Assembly: GCA_963802945.1 (NCBI GenBank)
Contig: CAWDKY010000027.1
Span: forward strand, 1-64,000
Reading direction: 5' to 3'
Origin: an uncultured delta proteobacterium
GTDB taxonomy: Bacteria > Desulfobacterota > RBG-13-43-22
Length of the DNA stretch: 64,000 bases
This document shows positions 47,258 to 64,000 of the stretch, piece by piece. How positions within the stretch are numbered: the first letter of the stretch is position 1; every line of letters begins with the position of its first letter. Made by a program: the position numbers and the translations under genes. Below the pieces are notes generated by a model, which searched no databases, was not told the origin of the DNA, and saw nothing but the letters and a program-made list of their open reading frames with translations.

Positions 47258-50200
47258 ATGTTCCTTTCCAATTTATCCATCAAACGACCTATATTCGCCA
47301 CGATGATGATGCTGGCCCTGGTCATTCTGGGGATCTTTTCCTACCGCAAACTGGCCATCGATCTGATGCCGGATATTGAAATCCCGATCCTTTCCATTGT
47401 CACCGTATTTCCCGGGGCCTCTCCGGAGACAGTGGAACGGGAAGTGACCAAACGGATTGAAGAGGAGGTCAACCGCATCCCCGGGGCCAAACACGTCACC
47501 TCCGTTTCCCGGGAAAGCGTCTCCCAAGTGGTGGTCGAGTTTCAACTGGAGGTCAAGATCAATGAGGCCTCTCAGGATGCCCGGGCCAAGATCAACACCA
47601 TCCGCAAGGAACTCCCCCAGGATATAGAAGAACCGATTATCCAAAAAATGGATATCGCCTCCCTGCCGGTCGATCTCCCTGGCCGTGCGGTCGGAAAAAC
47701 TTTCTCCCAGAGAGCTGACCACCCTGGTGGAAAAAAAGATCAAACGACCGTTTCGAAAACATCTCCGGCGTCGGCAAGGTAGATCTGGTCGGTACCTCTA
47801 AACGGGAAGTCAACGTCTGGATCGATCCCATCCGCCTCCAGGCCTTGAACATGGGGGTGGACGAGGTCATAGGCGGACTGCAATCGGAAAATGTCAATGT
47901 CCCCTTGGGCAGGCTGAACCGCGACAGTTCCGAATTCACTTTACGGATATCCGGAAAACCGGCGGCCGTGGAACAATTCAAATCCATGGTCATCGGCCAG
48001 AGGGACGGCCGTCCGATTCTATTAAGCGAGGTAGCCGATGTCCGGGACGGCATAGAAGAACAACGCTCCTTGGCCATGATCAACGGCATACCGGCCGTGT
48101 CTCTCGACATCCTCAAACAAACCAAGACCAATACGGTCGAGGTGGCGGACAAGATCAAAAAAACCATCGATCAAGTGCAAAAGGATCTCCCCCCCGGCAC
48201 GATCATCGAAATCGTCCAGGACTCCTCGACCTATATTCGGGATTCGGTCCGTGACGTGAATCAAACCATCCTACTGGGCGGAATTTTAACCATCCTGATC
48301 GTTTTCTGCTTCTTAAATTCCTGGCGTTCCACGGTGATCACCGGTCTGACCCTGCCGATCTCAGTTATTTCGTCCTTCATCATCATGAACTTTTTGGGCA
48401 TGACCATCAATATCATGACCATGATGGCCCTGTCTTTAGCCATCGGTTTATTGATCGACGATGCCATTGTCGTTCGGGAAAATATCGTCCGACATTTGGA
48501 ACGGGGAGAGGATCATATCACCGCCGCTCAGGAAGGGACCAGCGAGATCGGGCTGGCCGTATTGGCCACTTCTCTATCTATCATCGCTGTCTTTGTTCCG
48601 GTGGCCTTTATGAAAGGGATCGCCGGGCGTTTCTTTTTCCAATTCGGGATGACCGTGGCCTTCGCGGTCATGGTTTCCCTCTTTGTCTCTTTCACCCTCG
48701 ACCCAATGCTCTCCTCCCGCTGGATCGATCCGGATATCCGCCGCCTGGGGAAACGGAATTTTTTATATCGAATGCTGGATCACTTCAATCACGGGTTTGA
48801 AAGGGTGGCCGATAACTATCGGTTGATCATCGCTTGGGCCTTGGATCGACGCAAGTTGATGATGGTAATTACCGTTTTGGCCTTTATTGGAGGGCTGGCC
48901 ATTTTTTTAAGCCTGCCGGGCTCTTTTTTCCCTTCCTCAGATGCCGGTGAATTCCGATTGGACTTCCAACCCGCACCGGGGGCCTCCATTGAGGAAAGCC
49001 GGGGAAGGGTAGCCGTCGTCTTATCAGCCTTGAAGCAACTTCCTGAGATCAAGCATACCTACACGACCATCGGGGCCGGAGATACCGGAACGGTCAGGGA
49101 TGTGCACATCTACATCAAATTAAAAGACCGCAGCCAGCGGTCCAGGAGCCAGACTGAGATTCAGGAAGACATCCGGCGCCGCTGTATGAGTATCCCAGGA
49201 ATTATACCGTCGATAACGGAGGCCCATGGGATGGGCGACCGCAAACCCTTGATCGTCAATATCCGCGGAGACAATATCGACCTGCTGAAAAAATATGCCG
49301 CCCAATTAAAGGAGAAGATTCGTTCCATCAAGGGAATCGTGGATTTGGAGGTTACCCTGGAGCATGACATCCCCGAATACCGACTGACCGTCGATCGGGA
49401 GAGGGCTGTGGACAGCGGTCTGATGACCGCCAATATTGTGCGCACCGTCGGTGCCCTGGTGGGAGGCAAGGCCGTGTCCACTTATGAAGATGAGGATGGG
49501 GATGCCGTTAACCTGCGGGTGCGGCTCCCCCAGGACCTTCGACAAGAGCCGGAACAGGTTAACCAGATACGTCTTACTGTTGCGAAGTTTGGTCAGCCTC
49601 CGGCCCTGGTCCCCCTGGGAAATCTGGTTTCCTTTCAAAGGAGTTCGACCCCATCGGAGATCACCCGACAGGACCTCAGCCGGCAGGTGGCCCTCTCAGC
49701 CAATCTGGACAACCTGCCTATCGGAACGGCCATGAGCAAGATCAAGGAGGCCATGAAAGATATTAAAATGGCCCCAGGCTATCAAGTGGTCTTCTCCGGT
49801 GAGGGAGAGACCATGGTGGAAACCTTCGGCTATATGGCCGAGGCCTTGATCCTGGCTATCCTGATGGTCTACCTCATTCTGGCCTCCCAGTTCGAGTCCT
49901 TTATTGACCCTCTGGCCATTATGCTCTCCCTGCCCCTTTCCCTGGTGGGCATGGCCGGGATGCTTTTTCTAACCGGCGATACGATCAATATGATGTCTCT
50001 GATCGGCTTGATCATGCTGATGGGTCTGGTGACCAAGAATGCCATCCTGCTGGTGGATTATACCAAGGTCCTTCGTTCCCGGGGCCTGGAGCGAAAAGAA
50101 GCCATTATCCTCGCCGGCCGGACCAGGCTCAGGCCCATCCTGATGACTACCCTGGCCATGATCTTTGGTATGCTGCCTCTGGCCCTGGCCTTGGGCGCCG

Positions 50201-50362
50201 GTGCAGAGAGTGCGGGCCCCCATGGCCAGGGCCGTGATCGGAGGGCTGATTACCTCAACCTTCCTGACCCTGCTGGTGGTGCCGGTGGTCTATTCCCTGC
50301 TCGATGATTTCAGCGGGTGGGTCAGGCGAAAGAGAGAAAAGAAAAAGGAGGCCCTTTCATGA
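47258..50362 (+). CDS. RND efflux permease, AcrB family (frameshifts near 47670-47750 and 50210)
   Basis: [45 protein letters not shown] and [11 protein letters not shown]. Confidence 0.9.
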
Positions 50363-51759
50363 ACATGAATAGGAGTATTTTGAAGACTAATATTTTTCTC
50401 TTAACTGTTGTTATCATGGCCTTGGGGACCAATGTCTTGGCCCAGTCTTCCGAGGTAAAAAAAGAAGTGATGGTTTTAACCTTGGACCGGGCCTTGCAAA
50501 TAGCTATGGAAAAAAACAAGGATATTCAGAAGGCCCGGGAATATCGAAACCAGGTGGAGGGGCGTTATGTGGAAGAACGGGCCGCGGCCCTGCCCCGATT
50601 TTCAATCACGGCCAGTATGTCCCGCGCCCGGGACGAAAGCATGAAAGCCTTTGGCGGTCTATATCCGTTAGAACAGGAAATCCTCTCGGCCGGCATAGGT
50701 GTTTCTCAAGTCCTCTATTCCTTTGGTCAGGTGAGTGCCGCCATTCGGGCAGCCAAAGTCGGCCTTAAAACCGCTGATGATCAATTGCTGCTCTATCAAC
50801 AGGCGGTCTTAAAGGATGTCTCCTCAGCCTTTTACGACGCCCTGCTTTCCAAGGAGTTAAATGCCCTGGCCCGTCAGAACCTGGAACAAAGGATGCGCCA
50901 TCAGGAAGAGGCCCGCAAAAAATTTGCCGCCGGTACGGCTACCGATTATGATGTCTTAGCGGCTGGAGTGGCTGTGGAAAATGCCCGGCCGGATGTGATT
51001 CGAACCGAAAATCTTATTACTATCACCAGGGATAGGTTGCGTTTTCTTTTGGGATTGGAAAATCAGGAGGTCGATGTCCAGGGCACCCTTTTGCCGACCA
51101 TCAGCACCTATCCCTCTTATGAGGAGAGTATTGCCCTGGCCTGGAATAACCGGCCGGAATTGGCCGGCTATAAACATCGAATCGGGATGGCTGAAGAACT
51201 TTTGACTGTTTACAAGGCCGGCAACAAACCCCGTCTGGATTTAAAAGCCGGGTATGCTTGGAATAGTATGGATTTACCAGGTTGGTCAGCCGGTCCTCTT
51301 CTGGGTGTACAGTCGGGCATGTTCAGCGGGCCGGCTTGGACAGCCGGGGTTTATCTGACTTTTCCTTTTTTTGACGGTCTGCGCACTCAAGGAAAGGTCG
51401 CCCAGGCCAAGAGCGATCTGGCCACCTTAAAAATAGAAGAGGCCAAGCTGATTGACTCCATTGTCTTACAAACCCGTGAAGCGGTCAATGCGGTTTGGGA
51501 ATCGGGAGAAATCGTCAAAGGCCTGGCCGGCACGGTGTCCCAGGCCCAACGGCTTCTGTCTATGGCTGAAAAGGGATATGAGTTCGGGGTCAAGACCAAG
51601 CTGGATGTGGACGACGCCCAGTTGAACCTCATGATGGCCCAAAGCAACCTGGCCAAGGCCCGAAGGGATCATCTGGCGGCCCAGACGAATTTGCAGTGGG
51701 CTATGGGTACTATCCAGGCCCCGGTGATCTCTCCACCCGCTCAATCCAAGATGCCTTAG
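50359..51759 (+). CDS. TolC family outer-membrane efflux protein
   Basis: Signal peptide; [19 protein letters not shown] and [15 protein letters not shown]. Confidence 0.88.
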
Positions 51760-51779
51760 GCCAAAGGCGAGAGAAACCA

Positions 51780-52163
51780 ATGGTCATAAGTCCTGAAAAA
51801 CAACAGGCCTTAAAAGAAGCCCTTTTTAAATTGGGCATCCGGGAAGAAGATGTGATCGAGCGGTTTATACGATCCCAAGGGGCGGGCGGACAAAAGGTCA
51901 ATAAAACTTCCAGCGCCGTTTATCTGAAGCATCTGCCTACTGGTCTCGAGGTCAAGATGCAAAAGGAGCGATCCCAGGCCTTAAACCGCTTCTTGGCCTG
52001 GCGTCTTTTGGCCGAGAAAGTGGAAGAACTTCAAGGCGGGAAATCCCTTCAGCAGCAGAAGGCCGAAAAGATACGCAAGCAAAAGAACCGCCGCTTGAGA
52101 AGGGCCAAATCAGAGGCCGGATCCCGGACAGCCGATCCGGAAGGCCGGATGTCCAAGACATAA
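51780..52163 (+). CDS. Peptidyl-tRNA hydrolase domain protein (ArfB/RF-1-like)
   Basis: FIRSQGAGGQKVNKTSSAV, ERSQALNR and a basic C-tail. Confidence 0.85.
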   Translation: MVISPEKQQALKEALFKLGIREEDVIERFIRSQGAGGQKVNKTSSAVYLKHLPTGLEVKMQKERSQALNRFLAWRLLAEKVEELQGGKSLQQQKAEKIRKQKNRRLRRAKSEAGSRTADPEGRMSKT

Positions 52164-52485
52164 CGTCGGATAAAAAATAATTGAAGTTCCCCATTCCAGG
52201 GCACAGTCTCTTTACAGACTTCCAGGCAAGACAAAATCTTTATTGTTGAGGTTCGCTCGCTAATCTCATCAAAGGCGGGACTTTCACGCGGCTGGGGTAT
52301 TGAATGATCCTCTTGCCGTCCCACAAAATATTCACCATCTTGCATCTTGAATACTGCATCCAGCATCCCCACTTTTATTCTTGACACGGAAACATCTAAT
52401 TGATTATAGCTTTAAACTGACCCTTTAGGGGAAGTCCAATGAGAGAGCAATAATTAGTTACTAACAAATAGAAAGGAAAAGTTTT

Positions 52486-53793
52486 ATGAAATTGAGAAAT
52501 GCGGTTATTGTTGATGGTGTGCGATCCCCGTTTTCCTGGGGAGGCCGGGGGATGTATGAGGCCACCCGCTTGGACGAAGTGGCGGCCAAGGTCGTTCGCA
52601 CCTTGATGGAAAGAAATCCCAAAGTGAAACCGACCATGATCGAAGATTTCGGCATCGGCAATGCCGGAGGGACTTCGGATCTGGTCTTCCTGGGTGGCAT
52701 TTCCCGGTTGGCCGGATTGCCGGCGGAAACGACCAACTTTTCTTCCAACAGGCAGTGCGGCTCTTCCATGGAGACCATGCAGCGTATTGCCATGGCCATC
52801 ATGGTCGGCGCTACGGATTGCGGCATCTCCCTGGGGGTGGAACGGATGGGACGCACCCTGATGGGGGGTATGGCCGATGGACCGCCGCCTACCCGGGTGA
52901 CTGGATTGAACCCAAAAATTTTTGAGAAATCCAAACTCCAGCGGGATATGGCCGAAGATCACTCTAAATATTTCTCCGTGCCGATCCCGGATGAAATTCT
53001 GGATGCCCCTCCCTTACAACCCATGACTCAAACCGCCCAGAATGTGGTGGATATGTATAATATGACCCGGGAAGAGCTTGACGCCTACACGGTACGCAGC
53101 CATAAAAAACTGGCGGCAGCCTATGCCAAGGGGGTTTATAAAGATGAGGTGATCCCCATGGAGGTGGAGAAACCGGTTTTCAACGATAAAAAAGAATGGG
53201 TTCCTGAGGAAAAAGGCCCAATGGTCCTCTTTGATCAGGACGAGTGTCTCCGGCCGGGTTGTAATATGGAGGACCTGGGAAAGATGAATCCGGTGAAAGG
53301 GATTATCAGTTTCTGTAACAAACCGATTCACATTACCGCTGGCAATTCCTGCCCGACCAACAGCGGGGCTTCGGCCCTTTTGATCATGGCTGAAGATATG
53401 GCTATCAAACTGGGTATTACCCCCTTGGCCCGCATCGTGGGCATCGGTGTCGGAGGCGTGAAAGGCCAGCTCATGGGCATAGGCCCGATTCCGGCCACGC
53501 ATCGGGCCATGAAACATGCCGGGATCACGGCCGATCAGATCGACCGGGTGGAATTTAACGAAGCCTTTGCCTGCCAGGTTATCGTCTCGATCAAAGAGCT
53601 TGGCATTCCGGAAGAAAAGGTCAACGTGAACGGCGGGGCCCTGGGGATCGGTCACCCCTTAGGGGCAACCGGCGCGCGGCTGGTCATGACCGTGGCCAAG
53701 GAACTGCGCCGCAGCGGCAAACGCTATGGTCTGGCCACCCAGTGCATCGGGGCCGGCGAGGGCATCAGTACCATTTTAGAAGCTATGAATTAA
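52486..53793 (+). CDS. Thiolase (acetyl-CoA C-acyltransferase)
   Basis: NRQCGSS, TAGNS, NEAFA, GHPLGATG and TQCIGAG. Confidence 0.92.
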   Translation: MKLRNAVIVDGVRSPFSWGGRGMYEATRLDEVAAKVVRTLMERNPKVKPTMIEDFGIGNAGGTSDLVFLGGISRLAGLPAETTNFSSNRQCGSSMETMQRIAMAIMVGATDCGISLGVERMGRTLMGGMADGPPPTRVTGLNPKIFEKSKLQRDMAEDHSKYFSVPIPDEILDAPPLQPMTQTAQNVVDMYNMTREELDAYTVRSHKKLAAAYAKGVYKDEVIPMEVEKPVFNDKKEWVPEEKGPMVLFDQDECLRPGCNMEDLGKMNPVKGIISFCNKPIHITAGNSCPTNSGASALLIMAEDMAIKLGITPLARIVGIGVGGVKGQLMGIGPIPATHRAMKHAGITADQIDRVEFNEAFACQVIVSIKELGIPEEKVNVNGGALGIGHPLGATGARLVMTVAKELRRSGKRYGLATQCIGAGEGISTILEAMN

Positions 53794-53805
53794 AATCATT
53801 GCTAT

Positions 53806-53835
53806 CTGCAGGGAGGATGGCCATCCTCCCTGCAG
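53806..53835 (+). terminator. Perfect 30-bp palindrome after the thiolase
   Basis: CTGCAGGGAGGATGG-CCATCCTCCCTGCAG; no clear U-tract. Confidence 0.45.
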
Positions 53836-54228
53836 CCGAAAAAGAAGACCCGGGCAAACCTGATCTTCGGGATAACTTTTTACTTTAAATCTTTAAATAA
53901 AGCTTAATTCTCTATAATATTTTCAGTTACCTTCCTTTTGCTAATGGAGTAAAGTTTTTTTCGACCTTGCCTTCAAGTCAGAATACTAATATTATCACCA
54001 TCAATTTAGTCCAAATAACCCTGATTCCAAGGATAACGGTTTAATTCGAAAATAGGGTTTGAGGTTTAAAATTGGCCCAGTCCTATTTTTATGTACCGAC
54101 TTCCGACTGGAAGTCTCCTTTTTAGGTCGACACACGGCATCCAGCCGATCGGTCCGAGCGGCCCGACCTTATCAAGGTGCCCGCCCCTGGCGGGGCATGG
54201 TGGTTCATATACGAAAATAAGGAAATAC

Positions 54229-55464
54229 ATGTCCAGTTCTGTCGTCCCCATACAACCCGGTCGTCCGGAAGCAGAAAGGATTGAAGCCCTGGCTGATCAT
54301 TTGCAACGCCTGCACAAGGTCAATAGTTCCGACATCCGTGTCGTCAGAGCGCCGCTGCGTATTTGTCCGCTTGGCGCGCATATTGACCACCAGCTGGGTC
54401 AGGTAACCGGAACGACCATTGACCGGTCCATCTTGCTTGCCTTTGCGTCCAATGCCGACCGTACGGTCCATATCGTGAGCGAAAATTTTTCCCCGCCGGT
54501 CTTATTCCACCTGGATGATGTGCCGCAGGCCGCTCCCCGTGATTGGGGTAACTACATCAGAGGAGCAGTGCTCGGCCTGCAACAAAAAAATAATCTCAAG
54601 CGCGGATTAACAGCCGTGATCGGCAGCGATATGCCGATTGGAGGTCTAAGTTCTTCCGCCGCGGTAACGATCGCTTACTTGCTTGCTATGGAAGCGGTCA
54701 ACGATCTTGAATTGACGTCAAAGGAAAACATCAATCTGGTAAGGTTTACCGAAAATCAATATATCGGACTTAACAACGGTATCCTCGACCAGTCGGTCAT
54801 TCTTTTTAGTAAGCGCAATCACCTAATCTACATTGACTGCCAAAGCATTGAAGTCAAGCCGATGGTCGGGCCTTTGAAGGACGGCGATTTTGAGATTCTG
54901 GTTGTCTATTCCGGTCTGACAGGCGTTTTGGAAAGCACGGATTACAATAACCGGGTAGCCGAGTGTCGGGAAGCTGCGCGGAGGTTGCTGACCCTTTCAG
55001 GGCAAATTCCCGGGCCGGATACCTGCCTGCGCCAGGTTGATCCTGCCGTTTTCGCCGAAGAAGGCAGGCGCTTGCCGCCAAACCTTCAACGCCGCGCCGG
55101 GCACTATTTTGGGGAAATACAGCGTGTCAACGACGGCCTGGTGGCCTGGCAGCAGGGCGACCTGAACAGGTTGGGAGCCTTGATGACCGCCTCGGGTGAG
55201 AGCTCCATTAACAATTACGAGTGCGGCAGTCCGCAATTGATTACCTTGTATGAGATACTGCGGGAGACACCCGGCGTGTATGGAACCCGTTTCAGCGGCG
55301 CAGGTTTCCGGGGCTGCTGTCTGGCCCTGATTGACCCGAGCCTCCGCGAAACCGTGGCCGAGGCCGTTCACCGCCGCTACCCGGCCGAATATCCGGATCA
55401 GGCGGATGCTTATAACATTCACTTTTGCAGACCGGATGGGAGGGCTGAACTTTGCAAGGCGTAA
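54229..55464 (+). CDS. GHMP sugar kinase, galacturonokinase-like
   Basis: RICPLGAHIDHQ (versus GalK RVNLIGEHTDY), GGLSSSAAV, NGILDQ, YNNRVAEC and RFSGAGFRGC. Confidence 0.75.
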   Translation: MSSSVVPIQPGRPEAERIEALADHLQRLHKVNSSDIRVVRAPLRICPLGAHIDHQLGQVTGTTIDRSILLAFASNADRTVHIVSENFSPPVLFHLDDVPQAAPRDWGNYIRGAVLGLQQKNNLKRGLTAVIGSDMPIGGLSSSAAVTIAYLLAMEAVNDLELTSKENINLVRFTENQYIGLNNGILDQSVILFSKRNHLIYIDCQSIEVKPMVGPLKDGDFEILVVYSGLTGVLESTDYNNRVAECREAARRLLTLSGQIPGPDTCLRQVDPAVFAEEGRRLPPNLQRRAGHYFGEIQRVNDGLVAWQQGDLNRLGALMTASGESSINNYECGSPQLITLYEILRETPGVYGTRFSGAGFRGCCLALIDPSLRETVAEAVHRRYPAEYPDQADAYNIHFCRPDGRAELCKA

Positions 55465-56402
55465 TTTTAGCCGCCGGGAAAGGGTCGCGGCTGAACCCGA
55501 TCACCTTAAAACGCAGCAAAGCGATGCTGCCGATTTTAGGCAAACCGATTATCGAGCGGGTGATGGAAACGCTCGTCAGGAACGGCATCCGCGAGTTTGT
55601 CATGGTCATCAGCAGTGAAGATGATGAAGTGGGACGTTATTTTCGGGAGCAATCAAAACTGGATGTCGACATCCAATTTGTCGTGCAGAGTGGGCGCAAG
55701 GGAATGGCTGATGCCTTAAGCCTGGCCGCCCCCCTTATCCAGGGAACATTTGTGCTGTCAGCCTGCGATAACCTGACCCCTGAAGAACATGTGGCCGGGC
55801 TCCTGGCGACTCACCGAACCATCGGCGCTAAGGCCACCCTCAGTTTAATGGAGATTGCCCCTTCGCTGGCCGGACGGACCGGTGTGGTAGAGTTGCGCAA
55901 CGGACAGATTACCAAAATTATCGAAAAACCGGCGGCCGGACAGGCGCCGTCCAACATAGCCAGTTTGCCGTTATATGTATTTTCACCGGTTCTGCTTGAT
56001 TATCTGCCCGAAATCAAGCCTTCTATACGTGGTGAGTATGAGTTGCAGGATGCCATCCAGATGCTCATCGAACGCGATGGAGGGGTCACCGGTGTTTTTA
56101 CCCCCAGCCGCCTTCAATTGACCAATGCTGACGATCTTCTGAAGATTAATCTTCATTACCTGACCACCAGGGGAGAAAAGCCACAGCTGGCCCCCCCGAG
56201 CGTTGGTCAGGACACCCAGATGATACCGCCCCTGCGCATAGAGGAGAACACGATCATTGGCCGGGGCTGCGTCATCGGCCCCCGTGTTTACATCGAGCGC
56301 AACTGTAGCATAGGCGTAGATGTACTCATTAAAGACGCCGTCATTTTGCGAAACACCGTCATTGAGGACGGCCGGCGGATTGTGGGAGAGGTCCTGGCTT
56401 AG
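55452..56402 (+). CDS. Sugar-1-phosphate nucleotidyltransferase
   Basis: ILAAGKGSRL, IIEKP, PSIRGEYELQDAI and C-terminal hexapeptide repeats; overlaps the kinase stop. Confidence 0.88.
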   Translation: MQGVILAAGKGSRLNPITLKRSKAMLPILGKPIIERVMETLVRNGIREFVMVISSEDDEVGRYFREQSKLDVDIQFVVQSGRKGMADALSLAAPLIQGTFVLSACDNLTPEEHVAGLLATHRTIGAKATLSLMEIAPSLAGRTGVVELRNGQITKIIEKPAAGQAPSNIASLPLYVFSPVLLDYLPEIKPSIRGEYELQDAIQMLIERDGGVTGVFTPSRLQLTNADDLLKINLHYLTTRGEKPQLAPPSVGQDTQMIPPLRIEENTIIGRGCVIGPRVYIERNCSIGVDVLIKDAVILRNTVIEDGRRIVGEVLA

Positions 56403-56794
56403 TTGATCCCCTTGGATCCCGTTGGATCAGGTTCAACCCTGTTGGATCAGGTTGGATCCGGTTGCTGGTTCAGTATTTCCCAAGAAAAATGAGCCGAGCC
56501 AGGCATGACAAGGTCAAATGCAGGGCCTACGGTGTGATTGTATCTAAGGAGATGAATAAGAGGTTCGGAACCCTGTTGAAAACTCATGAACGTAACATCG
56601 AGGGAACGGTTATGGTATCCTACCCCGGTGGTTGCGCCTTTTGCCAGTTCAAGGTTTCCTGTATGGACTGAAATCCCATGGCCAAGGCGCAAAAGGGGTC
56701 ATGATATGCTATCTGCTTTTGGAAAATGACAAGAGCCTCGGAGGGCCAGCCTAAAAAAGTATGGTGTTTTCCGATTTCGCCCCATAAAGATGAC

Positions 56795-56823
56795 TTGACA
56801 AGAAAATATTTATTTGTTATCCT
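56795..56823 (+). promoter_or_regulatory. sigma70 promoter for the Phe leader / PheRS
   Basis: TTGACA-17-TATCCT with an extended -10 TG. Confidence 0.65.
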
Positions 56824-56832
56824 ACAACCACG

Positions 56833-56898
56833 ATGATTTCATTACTTCCTCAAAATTACTTTTTTACCCTCTTCTTTTTCGCGCCGGCGGCGCGATAA
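56833..56898 (+). CDS. Phe-rich leader peptide (MISLLPQNYFFTLFFFAPAAR)
   Basis: 21 codons with 5 Phe in 7 consecutive codons, followed by GC-rich alternative hairpins, directly upstream of a PheRS gene. Confidence 0.75.
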   Translation: MISLLPQNYFFTLFFFAPAAR

Positions 56899-57024
56899 TA
56901 CCCCTCTAGCGCCAGTTGGCGCCCAAACAAAATCCAAAATAAGCAACCCCCTAAGACCTCAGAAACATCAGTGGATATTTAGGCCTTAGTCAAAATTTTT
57001 TCATTAGGCATCAAGGAGACAGCT

Positions 57025-58170
57025 ATGAAATATACTCGAAAAAACATGCAGGAGATATTGGATCATTTGGCGTCGCGAACGGACACAGACGCCAATAGAA
57101 TCAAACGGCTCATGCAAATGCCGGATCTTTCCGGACGTCCCAATACCCCTGTTTACCACATTGTTGAAGCCGTCAAGAAGGCTGAGTCTTTAGAAAACCA
57201 TGACCTGGTTGAATTTCCGGAAATCGTTTCAGTCGAAGAGAACTTCGATCTGCTGGGAACACCCCCGGAACATCCCAGCCGAAGACCAAGTGATACTTTC
57301 TATCTAGATGATCATAATCTATTGCGAACCCAGACCACAACCATGTGGTCTTTTTATCTGAAAGATCCTGCCAACCTGAGGAGACTGGAAAAAGACGGGA
57401 GATTGTTGTCCCTTTCCTATGGGAAGGTATACCGCAACGATGAGATCGACCGATATCATTACCCGGTCTGGCACAATCTGGATGGGTTGTGCATCAGTAA
57501 GACCTCTGAAAAGGAGTTCAACCTGGTTGACTTGGTCAGCGTTCTGGTTGATGTCACCAAGAGTATTTACGGACGGGAAATCAAATGGGGAATGGAATAT
57601 AGCTCCTTTCCTTTTACCGACCCAAGTATTGAAATACAGATCGAATGGCAAAATGAACGAGTGGCGGTCCTGGGCGCAGGTATTGTCCATAAAAAAGTGC
57701 TGTCGCTTTTAAATATCGATCCTGACCATTATAACGGCTGGGCCTTTGGATTGGGTCTGGATCGTCTGGCCATGATCAGAATGAATATTCCGGATATCCG
57801 TATTCTCTGGTCCGAAGATGACAGGATAACCAAACAATTCAATAGCATTGACAGCATTTTCAGGGAAGTAAGCCAGTATCCCTCGACGGACAGAGACATC
57901 TCCATGGTGGTGTCGAAAGAAGTTCCGGTGAAGGCGATCTACGGCCTTATTAGAGACTGCGGCCATTATCAGAACGAGGATATCATCGAGGAAGTAAAAC
58001 TCGTTGATACGTATGCGGATGATGAAAAATTCGGAAATGGAAATATAAGCCATACCTTTAGAATTCGATACCGTTCCTTGGCCAGGACCTTAGAAAATTC
58101 GGAAATAAATAATGTTCAGGAGCTTCTCAGGAATAAAGTTAAAACCGAGTTTAATGTGCTTCTTCGATAG
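57025..58170 (+). CDS. Single-chain (mitochondrial-type) phenylalanyl-tRNA synthetase: catalytic domain + FDX-ACB
   Basis: ENFDLL, HPSRRPSDTFY, LLRTQTT, GKVYRNDEIDRYHYP, FPFTDPS and GWAFGLGLDRLAM, then SQYPSTDRDIS..EEVKLVD..FRIRYRS..RTL anticodon-binding domain. Confidence 0.85.
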   Translation: MKYTRKNMQEILDHLASRTDTDANRIKRLMQMPDLSGRPNTPVYHIVEAVKKAESLENHDLVEFPEIVSVEENFDLLGTPPEHPSRRPSDTFYLDDHNLLRTQTTTMWSFYLKDPANLRRLEKDGRLLSLSYGKVYRNDEIDRYHYPVWHNLDGLCISKTSEKEFNLVDLVSVLVDVTKSIYGREIKWGMEYSSFPFTDPSIEIQIEWQNERVAVLGAGIVHKKVLSLLNIDPDHYNGWAFGLGLDRLAMIRMNIPDIRILWSEDDRITKQFNSIDSIFREVSQYPSTDRDISMVVSKEVPVKAIYGLIRDCGHYQNEDIIEEVKLVDTYADDEKFGNGNISHTFRIRYRSLARTLENSEINNVQELLRNKVKTEFNVLLR

Positions 58171-58287
58171 CGGAGTAAATGAGAGACCTGATTTTGATGG
58201 AATTCTAAAAATAGGGGAAGTGTATCTATTCCCCACGATTCAGAAAATAACTTGACATGCTGACCATTTTCGTATAAAATGGCCGCC

Positions 58288-59496
58288 ATGATAACCAGAA
58301 ATCTGCAACAAGAAATTAAAGAATTAATGGCTCAAAAGCGATCTGTTTTCTTGTTTGGACCGAGGCAGACCGGCAAGACCACTCTCTTGACCGAAATCAG
58401 CTCCCTTTATCAAAAGGTCCTGGATTATTCTTTCTTAAATGTTTCCTTAAAATTAAAGGCCGAACAACAGCCCCAGTTTATCCGGCAGGAAGTTGAAGCC
58501 GCCAAGCCGGATCTGGTGATCATCGATGAAATACAGAAGGTCCCGGATATTCTTGATGAGATTCAATGGATGATCGATAAATCCAAGTTCGTTTTTGCCG
58601 TCACCGGATCATCCGCCAGAAAATTAAAAAGAAAAGGGGTCAATTTACTGGCCGGACGGGCCGTGACCTTTCATCTGGACCCGTTTGATATTTCCGAGAG
58701 AAAGCGAGCCATTCCGGATTTAAAAGGTAAGGATCATCTGGAAAAAATATTAACCTATGGGGATTTACCTGAAATCACCCTCCTGGTGACTCAGAAAAAG
58801 ATTAAGCTGGTGGAAAACCTGTTGCGTTCTTATGTAGAAACTTTCCTGGAAGAAGAAATCCGGATGGAAACCTTGGTCAGAAAAATAGGTCTTTTTGGGA
58901 ACTTCCTGCGAATGGCGGCTGAAATGTCCGGGAGGATACTCAGTTTCAGGGAACTTTCGCAGGACATCGGGGCCAGTCATCAGACCATTTCCTCTTTTTA
59001 CAGCATCCTAAACGACTGCTTGGTGGTCGAACCCATTCCCCCTCTGCTGTCGTCTTCCACCCGGCGAAGGCTATCGAAGGCCACTAAATTTATTTTTTTT
59101 GATTTGGGAGTTCGAAATGCCTCAGCGGGTCTACTGACGGATAAGGGTATTACGTCCGAAGAGTGGGGAAACCGCTTTGAACAGTGGGTTGGCCTTTCCC
59201 TGATTCGATATTTCCGGAGCCGAAATCTGAAAGGTGCAGTCTATTACTGGCGGGATCATAACGGTCCGGAAATCGATTGGATTGTAGAAACCCATAACCG
59301 CTGGATCCCGGTGGAAGTGAAGTGGACCGACCGCCTCCTGCCGAAACACTGGAAATATTTAAGTCAGTTTATCCGGGAAAATCCCGGAAAGGCTACTGTT
59401 GGCTACATTATATTTAACGGGGAACGGGCCAGACAAATAGACCGGAATATCATCGCCCTTCCCTGGTTTGAGTTGAATCAAATTTTCAAAGTCTAA
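58288..59496 (+). CDS. AAA_14 ATPase with DUF4143 / PD-(D/E)XK C-terminus
   Basis: GPRQTGKTT, IDEIQK, TGSSARKL, FFDLGV, YYWR..EIDW..VEVK. TTGACA-17-TAAAAT promoter suggests a leaderless start at 58288. Confidence 0.88.
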   Translation: MITRNLQQEIKELMAQKRSVFLFGPRQTGKTTLLTEISSLYQKVLDYSFLNVSLKLKAEQQPQFIRQEVEAAKPDLVIIDEIQKVPDILDEIQWMIDKSKFVFAVTGSSARKLKRKGVNLLAGRAVTFHLDPFDISERKRAIPDLKGKDHLEKILTYGDLPEITLLVTQKKIKLVENLLRSYVETFLEEEIRMETLVRKIGLFGNFLRMAAEMSGRILSFRELSQDIGASHQTISSFYSILNDCLVVEPIPPLLSSSTRRRLSKATKFIFFDLGVRNASAGLLTDKGITSEEWGNRFEQWVGLSLIRYFRSRNLKGAVYYWRDHNGPEIDWIVETHNRWIPVEVKWTDRLLPKHWKYLSQFIRENPGKATVGYIIFNGERARQIDRNIIALPWFELNQIFKV

Positions 59497-59574
59497 TCCC
59501 CACACCCGGCCATCCGACCCCTTTTCTCTAAACTACTATATGTTGGCCTTTCCGCCCTTTGGTTCTCCCTCCTT

Positions 59575-59710
59575 ACTCCGAACTCTGAGCTCTGAACTGT
59601 CTTTATTCTGATTCTCTCAACTCCGAACTATCCTTTCCTGCCTCATCCCTCACCCCTCGTCTTTCTTGTTTTTTCTTTCCTCCGAACTCCGAACCCTGAA
59701 CGCTGAACGT
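59575..59710 (+). repeat. Heptamer tandem repeats (CTCCGAA/CTCTGAA)
   Basis: ACTCCGAACTCTGAGCTCTGAAC...CTCCGAACTCCGAACCCTGAACGCTGAAC. Confidence 0.55.
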
Positions 59711-59727
59711 CTTCGACTTTTGCTCAA

Positions 59728-59847
59728 CTGCACAGAAATTTGTGCAGCGGTGACCAAATAATTGTGCAAATGGACCTCCGGCACCATCACAGGGAAAACC
59801 TAATTAGAAGAAAATATTCATTAATTTATCCTGGCATAGATCCTGCT
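59728..59847 (+). promoter_or_regulatory. sigma54 promoter with upstream enhancer-like palindromes
   Basis: CTGCACA-N6-TGTGCAG (59728-59747), a second half-degenerate site at 59751-59770, an AT-rich tract, and TGGCAT-AGATC-CTGCT at 59832. Confidence 0.55.
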
Positions 59848-60170
59848 ATATAATTTATTATTTTATATATTTTCAGATTAGGTGAGCAGGATCGATAACC
59901 TTAAATTTTGCAAAATCGGGTACTGCCAGGAATTCAAATCAATTTTATTATTGACATCTTAGCTTCCTTTTGGTTGAATTCTGTCACCTTTCGTATCAAA
60001 GTCCTTTCCATTGTAATTTGTGAAGTTAACATTTCCTTGCTTTTGAAGTAAGTATTCCGGCCAAATAGCCGGTTGAAGTGATAGCTGAACAGATAGTCCT
60101 TTTTTCAAGCAAATAAGTCTTAAATTTAAGTGGGGAAGTATCCCCTTATTTCAGATGGAGTTCTTAAATC

Positions 60171-60740
60171 ATGCAGGAAAATGTGATTAAAATTCCAAGG
60201 GAAAGGATTGAACAAATCATTTTATTGATTCGTGGCCAAAAGATTATCATAGATGCGGATTTGGCGACCCTTTATGATGTTGCAACAAAAGTGCTAAATC
60301 AAGCGGTTAAAAGAAATGCAAAGCGATTTCCGTCTGACTTTATGTTCCAATTGACTCCAAAAGAAAAAAACGAACTGGTCACAATTTGTGACCGGTTCCA
60401 AAAACTAAAACATTCTTCGGTCTTGCCGCGAGCATTCACAGAACAAGGTGTTGCAATGCTTTCTACTGTTCTTAACAGCGACCGGGCCATTGCGGTTAAC
60501 ATTGAGATTATGAGGGCTTTTGTCCGACTAAGGCAGATGCTATTAACCCATGCTGAATTGGCCAGAAAGCTTGAGGTTCTGGAACGAAAGTACGATGCCC
60601 ATTTTAAAATGGTATTTGAGGCCATCCGACAACTCATGATTCCGCCGAAGACCCCGAAACGCAAAATCGGCTTTGATCTGAAGGAGGAACAGGCTAGATA
60701 CGGGAAAAGGAAAGACAACAAGGTGGCGCCAAGAAATTAG
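60171..60740 (+). CDS. ORF6N domain DNA-binding protein
   Basis: [45 protein letters not shown] and RKIGF. Confidence 0.9.
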
Positions 60741-60972
60741 TATGGATGTCCCCGGATTTCTTTTGTGAAATTTTTATTTCAGGAGGTTAAAAACTTGAGG
60801 TTCCAAGTTGTCTCCTCAAGTTCATTCAATTGGGTCGGAACCTGCTTTGACGGGGTTGAGGATTTAGGTTAGGGATGGGAGTTAGGAAGTAGAATGCAAA
60901 GAAAATAGGCCTGACCCCCGGCCTGCTTATGGACTTATTGTTACGATAAAATAGGCCCTGGAGGATGACGCT

Positions 60973-63144
60973 ATGGAACAGAATATGAAAATAAAGCTTT
61001 TTATTTGCTATTCTCACCAAGATGAGGCTCCTTTTGTTGAGCAATTTAAAAAACATATTTCTCCACTAAAAGACAATGGTTTAGTTGAAGAGTGGTATGA
61101 TCGAAAAATCTTACCTGGTGAAGATTATCAAAATCAGATTGATAATAATTCAGAAGATGCAGATATTATTTGTTTATTTATTTCTGTAAATTTCCTTTTT
61201 TCAGTTAATTGTAAGAAAGAAAAAAAGAAAGCGTTAGAATTAAGAAAAAGGAAAGGAATTTCTGTTATTCCAATCATTTTGTCTCCATGTGGATGGTCAG
61301 ATGATAGGGATATTTCCAAATTGTTGGCCTTGCCCACAGACGGAAAACCGGTCATGAGTTTTCAAAATATGGATGAAGCATGGTATGATGTTTACAATGG
61401 ATTAAAAAAAATAATTAAGAAAGATACAAAGATTAAGCAAATAAAAATAAAAGAAGAATTTGAAAGTTTCTTGCAGGATACAGAAATGCTAACAAAAGCA
61501 CATCCTCAAAAAGAACTGGTTTTTTTAGGTGACATATTTATATATCCTGAGTTAGATAAATTTGATTATTTAAGAGAATACAAAGAAAAAATAAGCTCAG
61601 AAGAATTATTAAAAAACCTTCTTGATTATCCAAAGATTGTTATAGCTGGTGAGACTTTGTCGGGTAAAACGACATTGTGTAAAATGATATTTAAAAAGTT
61701 ACGGAAAATAAATTTTGTCCCTGTTTATGTTTTCGATAATAAAAATCAGTTTAAAGGAAAAATAAAAAATAAAATATTACGCTCATTCCAGGAACAATAT
61801 GAGGGGGTAGAAATAAAGGAAATTGATAGGGAGCGAATAGTTCCGATAATAGATGATTTTCATTTTGCTAAGGATAAAGAAAAGCATATACGAGATTTAT
61901 CCAACTATCTTTACTGTATAATAATTGTTGATGATATTTTTTGTTTGAATATTAAGGATGAAAAACTTATTGGACAATTTAATCCATTTAAAATAAGAGA
62001 ACTAAAACCGTCATTACGGTATGAATTAATTAAAAAATGGGAATTTTTAACAGATAAAAAAACTATTGATAATAATTTCTATGGGGAAATAGACAAAGCC
62101 GTCGAATTAATAGAGTCCACTTTGGGTAAAATCATTGGTAAGGGCGTTATGCCTTCATACCCTTTTTATATTTTATCTGCCATAGTTTCCTATGAGACAT
62201 TTAACACGCCACTTGATCAAGAAATTACATCCCAAGGTTACTGCTATCAGGCTCTTATATATTTTTATTTAAGGAAAGGGGGCGTAAGAAATGATGAGAT
62301 TGATATATACATAAATTTCTTTACAGAAATATCTTTTTACTTCTTTAGAGAAAAGAAAAATGAATTATTGCCCGACGACTTTACCTTATTTATGACGGAG
62401 TATTTAGAGAAATATAACCTTCCAATAAAACAGGAAATACTACTTCAATATTTAAGTCCAATAATTTTGGTAGATAGCTTTAATAATTATTCATTTCGAT
62501 ATAACTACCTTTATTATTTTTTCGTTGCTAAATATCTGGCCGAGCATATTGAGGATCGTGAAATAAAGAACATAATTGAAAAGATAATGCAGAATCTTCA
62601 CATAGATGAAAACGCCTATATTGCGATATTCATAACACATCACTCTAAAAATATCCAGATTTTAGATGAAATTGGACTAAATGCTTTAATTTTTTTCGAT
62701 AAATATAAACCTGCAACTTTGACAAAAGACGAGGTTAAGTTTTTTGATGAACGAGCAGATATTATTATCAAGGCGGCTTTACCTCCTGGCGATACAACAC
62801 CCGAAAAAGAAAGAATGGAAAGATTAAGAATTCAAGATGAGATGGAGCAATCACAAGGAAATGTTGAGAAAAAAGATGATAAAAATAAAAATGATTCTTT
62901 TGGAATAGAATTAAGGGGGGCAATCAGGACAGTTGAAGTTATGGGATATATTATTAAAAACCGAGCCGGGTCATTAGAAAAGACGAAACTTGAAGATATA
63001 TTTAAAGAAGCAATGAATGTTCATTTAAGAATTTTGTCCTCTTTCTTTAAAATTATAGAAAGTGAAGAAAACCAAAAAGGTATAGTTGATTTCATATTAG
63101 AAAGGTTAGATAAAATTATTAAGAAAAAAAAGGGGGAATTATAG
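60973..63144 (+). CDS. TIR domain + STAND-type P-loop NTPase, probably truncated by IS630
   Basis: LFICYSHQD, WYDRKILPG, CKKE (TIR), Walker A GETLSGKTT and Walker B IIDDFH; very AT-rich; the stop is formed at the IS junction. Confidence 0.8.
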   Translation: MEQNMKIKLFICYSHQDEAPFVEQFKKHISPLKDNGLVEEWYDRKILPGEDYQNQIDNNSEDADIICLFISVNFLFSVNCKKEKKKALELRKRKGISVIPIILSPCGWSDDRDISKLLALPTDGKPVMSFQNMDEAWYDVYNGLKKIIKKDTKIKQIKIKEEFESFLQDTEMLTKAHPQKELVFLGDIFIYPELDKFDYLREYKEKISSEELLKNLLDYPKIVIAGETLSGKTTLCKMIFKKLRKINFVPVYVFDNKNQFKGKIKNKILRSFQEQYEGVEIKEIDRERIVPIIDDFHFAKDKEKHIRDLSNYLYCIIIVDDIFCLNIKDEKLIGQFNPFKIRELKPSLRYELIKKWEFLTDKKTIDNNFYGEIDKAVELIESTLGKIIGKGVMPSYPFYILSAIVSYETFNTPLDQEITSQGYCYQALIYFYLRKGGVRNDEIDIYINFFTEISFYFFREKKNELLPDDFTLFMTEYLEKYNLPIKQEILLQYLSPIILVDSFNNYSFRYNYLYYFFVAKYLAEHIEDREIKNIIEKIMQNLHIDENAYIAIFITHHSKNIQILDEIGLNALIFFDKYKPATLTKDEVKFFDERADIIIKAALPPGDTTPEKERMERLRIQDEMEQSQGNVEKKDDKNKNDSFGIELRGAIRTVEVMGYIIKNRAGSLEKTKLEDIFKEAMNVHLRILSSFFKIIESEENQKGIVDFILERLDKIIKKKKGEL

Positions 63145-64000
63145 TGAACGTCTTAAATAAGTGGACATAAAGATTTTATCTTTTGAGGTTTCCATCGTTG
63201 CGACCTTTTAAAGACAGAGACCTCCAGGGTTTCAAGAGTCTCAAAAAAGGCATTCGTTGTTTCCTCATAGCGCATGGTTCGCCAAAGAGTTTCTTGATAA
63301 TTCAGCTCCGGATGGTAGGGCGGAAGATAGTGAAGATGCACTCGACGGTGTTGACTCCGAAAGTGCTCCACCATCTCTCCCCTGTGCCATGGGGCTCGAT
63401 CTATCCAAAGATCGATACTCTTATCTTTGAAACGTATCATGATGCTTTTGAGAAGCCGCATAAAGCCCTCGGTATTGCCCTTCCTCCATTTCATCATGCC
63501 ATGCAGCCCATCAACGGGAGCGACCCATCCAAAGAGATTAAGCCGCTTCTGATGTTGGCTCCGGGTGGAGACGTACGGTTGCGTTCCTTTCTTTACCCAG
63601 ACACGACCCAGCCTCGGATGAAGACTAAACCCGCTTTCGTCCTCAAACAGAATGATTCTTCTTCCTTCGCTCTTTTCGGCCTGGCGGAGTTTTTTTTAAT
63701 TCCCTCTGAAATGCCTCTACCCCTTCCTGGGAAGCCTGAACAAACCGGTACATCGGCTGCCTCAGGGAATACCCCAACTGACGTATCCACCGTTGGGCAT
63801 GGCGGACATGGATGGTTATGCGATGAAAACGCTTCAAATATTCCGTCAAGACCACCCCATCCCACCGGACCCGGGCAATGCCATAGTCTTTCGGAGACTT
63901 GGACAAGACCACGTCCAGTTCCCTCTTCAAGCGATCATCCAAGTGGGAAGGCCGGCCAGGGCGAAATCGATCGCGGACAGCCCCAATTCCCTCCTCGTTG
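63144..64000 (-). mobile_element. IS630-family insertion sequence (runs off the window)
   Basis: HTH ORF (63643-63942) and DDE ORF (FEDESGF, WIDRAPWH, LPPYHPELNYQE) linked by an A8 slippery run near 63690-63697; TA target at 63142-63143. Confidence 0.88.

Follow-up and report, generated by a model that had tools for sequence, protein, structure and literature searches.

We analysed a 64,000-nt stretch of DNA (hereafter the window), positions 1 to 64,000 of contig CAWDKY010000027.1 from an uncultured member of the Desulfobacterota, in which an earlier note had singled out the interval 56795-58170 as a possible auxiliary phenylalanyl-tRNA synthetase (PheRS) gene controlled by a phenylalanine-rich leader. 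All coordinates given below are positions in the whole window. The reading that best accounts for the data, to which we assign a probability of roughly two in three, is that the locus encodes a horizontally acquired backup PheRS consisting of a single chain, which carries its own promoter and a leaderless Phe-sensing leader and resides in a genome that also bears canonical pheS-pheT. This reading is built on the domain make-up and fold of the protein, its status as an extra copy, its phylogenetic placement, the mobility of the block in which the gene lies and the conservation of the leader architecture. The main new result is the conservation, across phyla, of a mini-ORF (open reading frame) of Phe codons followed by a hairpin. 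What appears to be new as a system is a foreign single-chain backup PheRS that would travel with its own leaderless Phe-codon sensor, and as far as sequence can show, the earlier proposal of an auxiliary PheRS behind a Phe leader is upheld.

Canonical pheS (321.8 bits) and pheT (836.8 bits) are adjacent to each other on another contig of the same genome (C17), downstream of rpmI-rplT, and for this reason the single-chain gene is an extra copy; the possibility that it might be the housekeeping enzyme of a genome lacking pheS-pheT, which the earlier note had itself raised, falls away. No Phe-rich upstream open reading frame (uORF) was found in the 60-nt gap that precedes canonical pheS. ARAGORN identified a single tRNA-Phe(GAA) among the 50 tRNAs of the genome, so both PheRS enzymes would share one tRNA. 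The same situation holds in the other genomes outside the Candidate Phyla Radiation (CPR) that carry the single-chain gene: pheT is present in all six non-CPR carriers, scoring above the cut-off in five and occurring as a fragment at a contig end in the sixth (G453). At the locus itself the single-chain gene is not accompanied by pheT, as had been claimed; the genes on its upstream side encode a GHMP kinase and a nucleoside triphosphate (NTP) transferase, and the gene on its downstream side an AAA_14-DUF4143 ATPase.

Profile searches with the single-chain protein matched PF01409 over residues 42-272 (E = 4e-50; 170.9 bits against a cut-off of 19.8) and the FDX-ACB family PF03147 over residues 283-381 (E = 3.5e-20; 72.7 bits against a cut-off of 31.1). 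An AlphaFold model, built from an alignment which we refer to as A1, has a predicted local distance difference test score (pLDDT) of 93.0 and a predicted template modelling score (pTM) of 0.89. Over its full length the model matches the structures of human mitochondrial PheRS (FARS2; 5mgw and 3cmq) with template modelling (TM) scores of 0.81 when normalised by the query and 0.76 when normalised by the target, at 28% identity, and human mitochondrial PheRS also provides the closest sequences in the PDB (E of about 2e-43). FARS2 has the same one-chain arrangement of a PheS core and a C-terminal FDX-ACB domain, with no editing module. Judging from the model, the window protein has the architecture and fold of the organellar single-chain PheRS. 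The term "mitochondrial-type", which the earlier note had used, is thus appropriate for architecture and fold, but not for affiliation: the score of the window protein against TIGR00469 (pheS_mito), 211.2 bits, lies under the curated cut-off of 258.35, and its nearest relatives are the single-chain PheRS of Patescibacteria. Some of these CPR relatives pass the TIGR00469 cut-off narrowly (P0037 with 265.6 bits; P0036 and P0124 with about 263-264 bits). The score of the window protein against TIGR00468 (pheS), 153.5 bits, is likewise under its cut-off of 237.45. Whereas human mitochondrial PheRS has HTS and FHQLE motifs, the window protein has QTT and WHNLD; unlike the mitochondrial enzyme it is bacterial, coexists with pheS-pheT and clusters with CPR proteins. 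The gene is under purifying selection, as its identity to the two closest loci (L025 and L105, described below) is 0.963 and 0.916 at first, 0.982 and 0.942 at second, and 0.895 and 0.804 at third codon positions, respectively.

A large protein search yielded 2308 homologues, a few of which are close (94-68% identity); most are about 381 aa long and about 50% identical to the window protein (47-53%), and those with names come from Staskawicz-, Nealson-, Pace- and other Patescibacteria. The Patescibacteria proteins, annotated as "hypothetical protein" or "PheRS alpha chain", share with the window protein the length of about 381 aa, the N-terminal helices and the LRTQTT and xDG motifs. In each of three Patescibacteria genomes (G061-G063; loci L051, L096 and L062), two of them assembled as one contig of about 0.6 Mb, no PheS-like gene other than the single-chain gene was found, and no PheT besides the FDX-ACB part of that gene. 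As no other PheRS is present in these genomes, the single-chain enzyme must be the housekeeping PheRS there. We infer that the window protein charges tRNA-Phe because its CPR relatives serve as sole PheRS in three of three genomes, and on sequence grounds we place it in an unnamed bacterial single-chain family within the PheS catalytic superfamily. Among 151 evenly drawn Patescibacteria genomes, 126 have a PheT above the cut-off and about eight have FDX-ACB-sized matches only; reliance on a single-chain PheRS thus appears to be a trait of a Patescibacteria sublineage and not of the whole phylum. The Patescibacteria enzyme is a sole PheRS without a Phe uORF (0 of 124 copies), whereas the window copy is an extra one, with a leader and with the residues W149 and N151 considered below.

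The profile results also bear on whether the protein is a tRNA-Phe synthetase at all. It could instead be a PheS-derived ligase acting on another acceptor or substrate, comparable to SrmL, with the leader tying its expression to the supply of aromatic amino acids. The top NCBIfam match of the window protein is indeed NF051887, "PheS-related mystery ligase SrmL" (235.4 bits), and the match spans both domains (profile positions 20-347 of 349); in addition, Q103, T105, N151 and D153 differ from canonical PheS, and R212 replaces an otherwise conserved Trp. The score nevertheless misses the NF051887 cut-off of 300, which is reached by none of the 21 family proteins tested, including housekeeping CPR PheRS; Q103, T105 and D153 are common to the housekeeping CPR enzymes; and the FDX-ACB anticodon-binding domain is retained under purifying selection. 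We consider a non-PheRS ligase most improbable and reject identity with SrmL. A search of the window's own genome with the NF051887 profile found no true SrmL.

Carriers of the family are rare outside the CPR. At E <= 1e-50, the gene was detected in three of 401 Desulfobacterota genomes, namely the window's own, its congener G005 (94% protein identity) and a doubtful partial copy in G002, and in four of 296 Fibrobacterota genomes. The G002 copy (locus L007; G002:C4:1-2198) is 42% identical, cut by the contig end and has a CPR-like N-terminus; it comes with a terminator of its own and with promoter-like sequence upstream and lacks a Phe uORF, and the metagenome-assembled genome (MAG) in which it lies has 8% contamination. 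L007 is probably a CPR contig that was mis-binned into a Desulfobacterota MAG. In one of the Fibrobacterota loci (L166, on G453:C263), residues 1-253 and the FDX-ACB part are encoded in different frames, and the leader uORF is intact.

The earlier note had suggested placing the protein in a tree with other PheRS. We constructed a maximum-likelihood tree of 110 rows, rooted on the genome's own PheS; most of the rows, which are numbered with the prefix P, have no taxonomy attached. The window protein clusters with CPR proteins and not with the representatives that score as pheS_mito. CPR and non-CPR single-chain copies fall together in a CPR-type clade (support 98), starred in the tree, within which the non-CPR copies are found in one group of 38 rows (SH-aLRT 90) beside three CPR groups. 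The non-CPR copies accordingly appear as one clade, with moderate support. The representatives passing the pheS_mito cut-off (P0134-P0258) occupy basal branches, from among which the CPR-type clade emerges with a support of 96; eukaryotes and CPR bacteria may thus have exchanged the single-chain fusion, in one direction or the other.

The gene appears to have spread as part of a larger unit. When the block 56784..58218 (or 58216), comprising promoter, leader and gene, was compared by blastn, it was 93.4% identical to locus L025 in the congener G005 and 88.6% identical to a metagenome locus, L105. The flanks of the window, L025 and L105 are unrelated, which gives three different contexts for the same block; the neighbour in L105 is again a different gene from those in the other two. 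Apart from HicA, the products of the G005 and L105 neighbours were read from their translations alone, with no search. GC content falls from 0.51-0.57 upstream to 0.42-0.46 across the block and is lower still beyond it. No terminal repeats or mobility genes marking the block ends were found. The sole repeat between the ends is a 14-nt match, 86% identical, between the block's own -35 region (56787) and the promoter of the next gene (58244); we take these to be two promoters and reject a target-site duplication. In five genomes of the same genus, no DNA match to the block flanks around an empty site was found, and hence no vacant insertion site. From the comparison of the three loci, we suggest that the block is a self-contained mobile unit of about 1.4 kb. 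In the four examined of 24 listed sequencing runs, all of them DNA runs with small shares, only contigs of the G005-type allele with G005 flanks were seen, and no new variants.

A short uORF with a cluster of Phe codons near its end precedes the gene in all seven non-CPR loci examined, which come from two phyla. In each of the seven, the last Phe codon is separated by 0-1 nt from a hairpin of the form GCGC-N3-7-GCGC, which in turn lies 2-8 nt ahead of the stop codon. The seven loci represent four lineages whose proteins are at most 55% identical and whose leaders are otherwise unalignable. Between lineages the Phe codons are exchanged synonymously, with TTC used in L167, which is GC-rich, and TTT in the others, while reading frame, start and stop remain the same; the C-terminal peptide A-P/R/L-x-A of the uORF is also conserved. 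The uORF signature was not found in the 380 nt upstream of CPR-type copies (0/124) or in the rest of the 1.75 Mb of fetched loci on either strand, and it occurs once in the 4.37-Mb genome, at this locus. That homologues might keep a Phe-rich uORF had been raised earlier as a check, and for the non-CPR loci the answer is positive.

Within the window's own clade, the segment 56860..56898, which comprises Phe tract, hairpin and stop, is the best-conserved part of the leader (38 of 39 positions identical in L025 and 37 of 39 in L105). The corresponding values are 18/27 and 21/27 for the 5' half of the uORF, and 46/49 and 43/49 for the promoter part, 56784..56832. In G005 and L105 the uORF starts one codon upstream of the window's start, in the same frame. 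With five Phe in seven codons, the uORF has the codon-rich short ORF typical of pheM/trpL-type attenuators. No GGAG-like Shine-Dalgarno (SD) sequence was seen ahead of its start on inspection of the window sequence, and in five of the seven loci a -10-like hexamer (TATATT or TATCCT, preceded by TG) ends 6 nt ahead of the uORF ATG, whereas the window and L027 have distances of 9 and 10 nt, respectively. The uORF is probably leaderless or nearly so; the earlier guess of a leaderless uORF is consistent with the missing SD and with the five loci with a 6-nt distance, and less so with the window's own spacing. The consensus score of the promoter is by itself no better than chance, as three such sites occur in 56300..58400 compared with 3.6 +/- 1.6 in shuffled sequences. 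The features of the locus are listed in Table 1; the promoter, the uORF, both palindromes, the 381-aa fusion ORF and the motifs LRTQTT, WHNLDG and RVAVLGAG were all confirmed at the positions previously claimed for them.

Table 1. Features of the single-chain PheRS locus in the window, its genomic flanks, and uORF peptides of the seven non-CPR loci
Feature	Position	Strand	Description or basis
Conserved block (promoter, leader, gene and 48 nt past the stop)	56784..58218	+	1435 nt; blastn
Sigma-70-like promoter	56795..56823	+	TTGACA-17 nt-TATCCT, TG upstream; 10/12 consensus matches
Leader uORF, window	56833..56898	+	21 codons plus stop; translation MISLLPQNYFFTLFFFAPAAR; without SD
Phe-codon cluster	56860..56880	+	5 Phe in 7 codons; TTT TTT at 56860..56865, TTC TTT TTC at 56872..56880
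GC palindrome/hairpin 1	56881..56893	+	GCGCCGGCGGCGC; inside uORF, from the base after the last Phe codon; stop 2 nt later
GC palindrome/hairpin 2	56909..56922	+	GCGCCAGTTGGCGC; arms also pairable with hairpin 1; only in the window's subclade
C-rich, G-poor stretch after uORF stop	56899..56958	+	C 23, G 8; possible Rho loading region
SD of main gene	57013..57019	+	AAGGAGA; sequence
Single-chain PheRS-like protein	57025..58170	+	381 aa; N-terminal helices, class II PheS core, C-terminal FDX-ACB
Flanks, window			GHMP kinase and NTP transferase on one side; AAA_14-DUF4143 ATPase, ORF6N protein and TIR-STAND NTPase on the other
Flanks, G005			HicA-family gene on one side; dehydrogenase-like and CoA-transferase-like ORFs on the other
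uORF peptide, G005 (L025)			MISLLTLQTCFFALFFFAPAAR
uORF peptide, L105			MIISLPLQNSFFAFFFFAPAAR
uORF peptide, L026 (Chitinispirillaceae)			MIGILRKTAPAIYFFSIGFAPQAQNI
uORF peptide, L166			MIGILRKSAPAIYFFSFGFARQAQTI
uORF peptide, L027			MKKSDKLLNNCLFYRDLFFSAPQAH
uORF peptide, L167			MIHRTSHSCRFFAFLFFALRAQ

These features suggest the following scheme. The gene would have been acquired horizontally as a unit of about 1.4 kb containing promoter, leader and gene. The uORF would be translated from the 5' end of the transcript, in leaderless or nearly leaderless fashion, with its five Phe codons placed ahead of the GC hairpin and the stop. By analogy with known leaders, an ample supply of Phe-tRNA(Phe) would let the ribosome pass through and depart, and the long untranslated spacer (113-170 nt from uORF to main SD across loci) would hold expression of the main gene low. 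A shortage of Phe-tRNA(Phe), brought about by a lack of Phe or by a main PheRS that is crippled or inhibited, would make the ribosome stall on the Phe tract, cover the adjacent hairpin and keep it open, and output of the backup enzyme would rise. For the step under control we favour relief of ribosome-binding site (RBS) occlusion or relief of Rho-dependent termination in the C-rich spacer. A third option is stabilisation of the mRNA, as brought about in erm leaders by a ribosome that stalls close to the 5' end.

The predicted structures agree with this scheme in some loci. In predicted ensembles the Phe tract pairs with the main SD in L025, L105 and L026 (8.8-10.0 expected bp), and masking by a stalled ribosome raises the unpaired probability of the SD from 0.38 to about 0.59 in L025, from 0.39 to about 0.53 in L105 and from 0.16 to about 0.32 in L026. 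The C-G excess of the 60 nt after the uORF stop places the window within the top 0.8% of 60-nt windows in 50000..64000; this segment ranks in the top 2-3% in L025, L105 and L026, and in the top 12-21% in L027, L166 and L167 (fractions 0.018-0.21). The genome encodes its own rho (715 bits).

The points in this paragraph and the next count against the reading and call for caution. Three of the seven leaders, those of the window clade, have 88-89% DNA identity and are to be counted as one lineage, so that four lineages remain in total, and the rule that defines the uORF signature was written from the same seven loci; the score of seven in seven is therefore true by construction, and what is informative is the zero counts elsewhere. 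The G002 locus, L007, has no such uORF and was left out as a probable mis-binned contig; if genuine, the count becomes seven of eight. The window's 9-nt spacing means that its uORF may carry a 5' untranslated region of 2-3 nt. The frame break near residue 253 of L166 reflects either a pseudogene or an assembly error. In the tree, the branching of the 38-row group relative to the three CPR groups is a polytomy, and transfer from CPR bacteria to other phyla is what we infer as the economical reading of the distribution, one that the tree does not prove. Finally, W149 and N151, together with R212, could mark a non-standard PheRS.

As for the leader, a terminator scan found no site in it, both matches lying inside the coding region, and an Rfam scan of 55500..59500 with E up to 1 gave no match and hence no T-box or other known leader. 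Elsewhere than in L025, L105 and L026, pairing between Phe tract and SD is low (L027 2.85, window 0.84, L166 0.11 and L167 0.00 expected bp), and masking by a stalled ribosome hardly changes the unpaired probability of the window SD (0.52 without it, 0.54 or 0.53 with it). In the window and L025, a Phe tract of shuffled sequence pairs with the SD to much the same extent as the native tract, so the complementarity may reflect no more than the content of pyrimidines and purines. A C-rich spacer stands out clearly in the window subclade and L026 only.

Two further results define what the leader is not. Because it has no terminator, classical attenuation is unsupported, and we have dropped attenuation by an intrinsic terminator; neither hairpin has a run of T behind it, and the sequence that follows is A/C-rich instead. 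RBS occlusion is not claimed for the window, where the folding tests give it no support. The fold of the whole leader barely beats that of shuffled sequences (-42.1 kcal/mol; z = -1.76; nine of 200 shuffles as good). As for the "competing hairpins" described earlier, both are present in the window; the second, however, is restricted to the window's subclade, other lineages have one, and none is a terminator.

These structural results leave some room for a uORF that is no Phe sensor, either as a chance or hitch-hiking ORF over a conserved U-tract and GC hairpin or as an arrest peptide, for example one responding to a ribosome-targeting drug, with the gene expressed constitutively or regulated otherwise. 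The lack of an SD, of a terminator and of an Rfam match in the leader would all be expected under such a view, as would the inconsistency of the thermodynamic tests across loci, and the conserved A-P/R/L-x-A could be a peptide arrest motif, or just the GCGC hairpin. Against it, frame, ATG and stop are kept in four lineages with unalignable leaders in which the Phe codons switch between TTT and TTC, and a Phe-codon leader before a Phe-specific synthetase fits the logic of pheST. We think it highly unlikely that the uORF plays no part in Phe sensing.

The residues of the active site were tallied over 121 aligned family members. The motif-2 Arg137, the motif-3 Arg247, the FPFT residues (F195, F197 and T198) and A240 are constant, with two exceptions: R137 is replaced by Ser in one member among P0008-36, and F197 by Tyr in one among P0037-120. 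Q103, which takes the place of the His of canonical HTS, is present in 101 of the 121 members, T105 in 120 and D153, in place of the canonical Glu, in all 121. These three residues also occur in the CPR enzymes that are their cells' sole PheRS, and for that reason LRTQTT and the D of xDG are no sign of odd function. W149 and N151 are distributed differently: they are fixed in all eight members of the window's subclade (tree support 100) and absent from the other 113 members, all of which have F and Q. R212 is unique to the window: Trp stands at this position in all 27 remaining single-chain rows of A1, among them the G005 protein with its 94% identity, and the two codons differ at two bases. 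The "divergent active site" of the earlier note thus proves to be a family-wide trait as regards LRTQTT and the D of xDG, while it stands for W149/N151, confined to a subclade of eight sequences, and for R212, confined to the window. From the literature on Thermus thermophilus PheRS we take it that the Gln and the following acidic residue of motif 2 (FHQ) contact the amino group of bound Phe and that the His and Ser of HTS bind the backbone groups of the amino acid. Presumably, then, Q103, T105, N151 and D153 occupy positions that contact the alpha-amino/carboxyl part of Phe, and they differ from canonical PheS. The residues that hold the phenyl ring (FPFT and A240) are unaltered in the window protein.

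This pattern raises the question of whether the subclade is specialised for resistance or has shifted in specificity, such that W149/N151 protect its enzymes from a natural PheRS inhibitor or let them discriminate better against look-alikes of Phe such as m-Tyr (meta-tyrosine), with the leader inducing them once the main enzyme is poisoned. Such a view overlaps with the preferred reading and differs from it by what it asserts about the active site. The exclusive fixation of both residues in a fully supported subclade agrees with this, as does the location of the WHN changes in the substrate site, if the T. thermophilus contacts apply here. Movement as a cassette and a setting in accessory islands are typical of resistance genes, and the gene is cassette-like and lies in such islands, by a TIR-STAND nucleoside triphosphatase (NTPase) in the window and by HicA in G005. 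The leader, on the other hand, is common to lineages with the ordinary FHQ(I/V)DG (L026, L027, L166 and L167), and so its regulatory design is independent of the WHN change; moreover, the gene has no link to a biosynthetic cluster or to an inhibitor already known, and the phenyl-ring pocket is unaltered. We regard a resistance enzyme as rather unlikely on balance. There is likewise a small but not negligible chance of a wider scenario, in which a CPR-derived mobile cassette of 1.4 kb circulates among anaerobes of different phyla and, its amino-acid site retuned by F149W and Q151N in the window's subclade, provides inducible self-defence against a natural PheRS poison or toxic Phe analogues and more than spare capacity. 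PheRS is under active development as a drug target. Should W149/N151 alter sensitivity to inhibitors or analogues, the cassette would amount to a naturally occurring determinant of resistance to compounds that target PheRS.

The preferred reading, an inducible backup PheRS, has parallels in known systems. Expression of E. coli pheST is controlled by an attenuator with the Phe-rich leader peptide PheM, in which stalling at Phe codons raises synthetase expression; the attenuator has an intrinsic terminator, alternative hairpins and a leader ORF with its own SD. The window locus resembles it in having a short ORF rich in Phe codons ahead of a PheRS gene, and differs in that no terminator was found, the uORF is seemingly leaderless and the target is an auxiliary single-chain enzyme. 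Second synthetases that are induced when charging drops include thrZ and tyrZ of Bacillus subtilis, with T-boxes, and trpRS1 of Streptomyces, with a Trp leader. The likeness here lies in a second, normally low synthetase that is turned on when a sensor registers uncharged tRNA or stalled translation. These second enzymes are paralogues of the same architecture as the first, whereas the window backup is one chain as compared with an alpha2-beta2 tetramer and is of foreign origin. An experimental precedent for RBS occlusion is offered by the leaderless polycysteine small ORFs of mycobacteria, in which stalled ribosomes are reported to block an mRNA structure that sequesters a downstream RBS (10.1101/834739). 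These ORFs share with the window uORF, itself probably leaderless, the form of a short ORF containing a run of codons for one amino acid. They differ in the amino acid, the phyla and the class of target, and an RBS duplex is predicted in three to four of our seven leaders, and not in that of the window. Lacking a classical terminator, the putative sensor is a clean natural test case for stalled-ribosome control on leaderless transcripts.

To our knowledge, textbooks restrict single-chain PheRS to organelles. The results presented here place an organelle-style PheRS in two bacterial settings, namely as the sole enzyme in a Patescibacteria sublineage and as a rare mobile backup beside the heterotetramer. 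A sole single-chain PheRS implies that this Patescibacteria sublineage lives without the PheT editing domain, and its reliance on an organelle-style enzyme seems to be undescribed in the searchable literature. Full-text searches, with most subscription journals and supplements outside their reach, returned nothing on bacterial or CPR single-chain or monomeric PheRS, on SrmL or on such a leader. One CPR paper mentions PheRS and, in the passage concerned, speaks of PheRS-beta domains only (PMC5370408). Supplementary tables on CPR genomes may already list single-chain PheRS among synthetase content.

Several features in the surroundings of the block are of separate interest. The block lies at the left edge of a low-GC island (58279-63144, GC down to 0.28) that encodes the AAA_14-DUF4143 ATPase, the ORF6N protein and a 723-aa protein with TIR and STAND-NTPase domains, and that looks like a defence island. 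In G005, the block is adjoined by a HicA-family toxin gene (L025:196-691; Pfam E = 2.4e-10), preceded by an overlapping 88-aa ORF, without a Pfam match, that might encode the cognate antitoxin. Just upstream of the ORF6N gene, at about 60002-60121, lies a repeat of about 100 nt with many copies at 75-97% identity in genomes of the same genus: G005 has it in about 15 places, G008 in 13, and G001, G006 and G007 contain it as well. It looks like a MITE (miniature inverted-repeat transposable element) or a REP (repetitive extragenic palindromic) element, and as it is specific to the genus, it ties the contig to that genus, which makes a binning artefact less likely. Between the NTP-transferase gene and the block, an intergenic stretch of about 200 nt (56502-56707) is conserved in G008 (82%) and G001 (73%); a 69-aa ORF without a Pfam match (56462..56671) overlaps this stretch, which could be a small gene or a small RNA. 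Right after the NTP-transferase stop, at 56405-56464, there is a tandem array of 5.3 copies of the 10-nt unit TTGGATCCGG.

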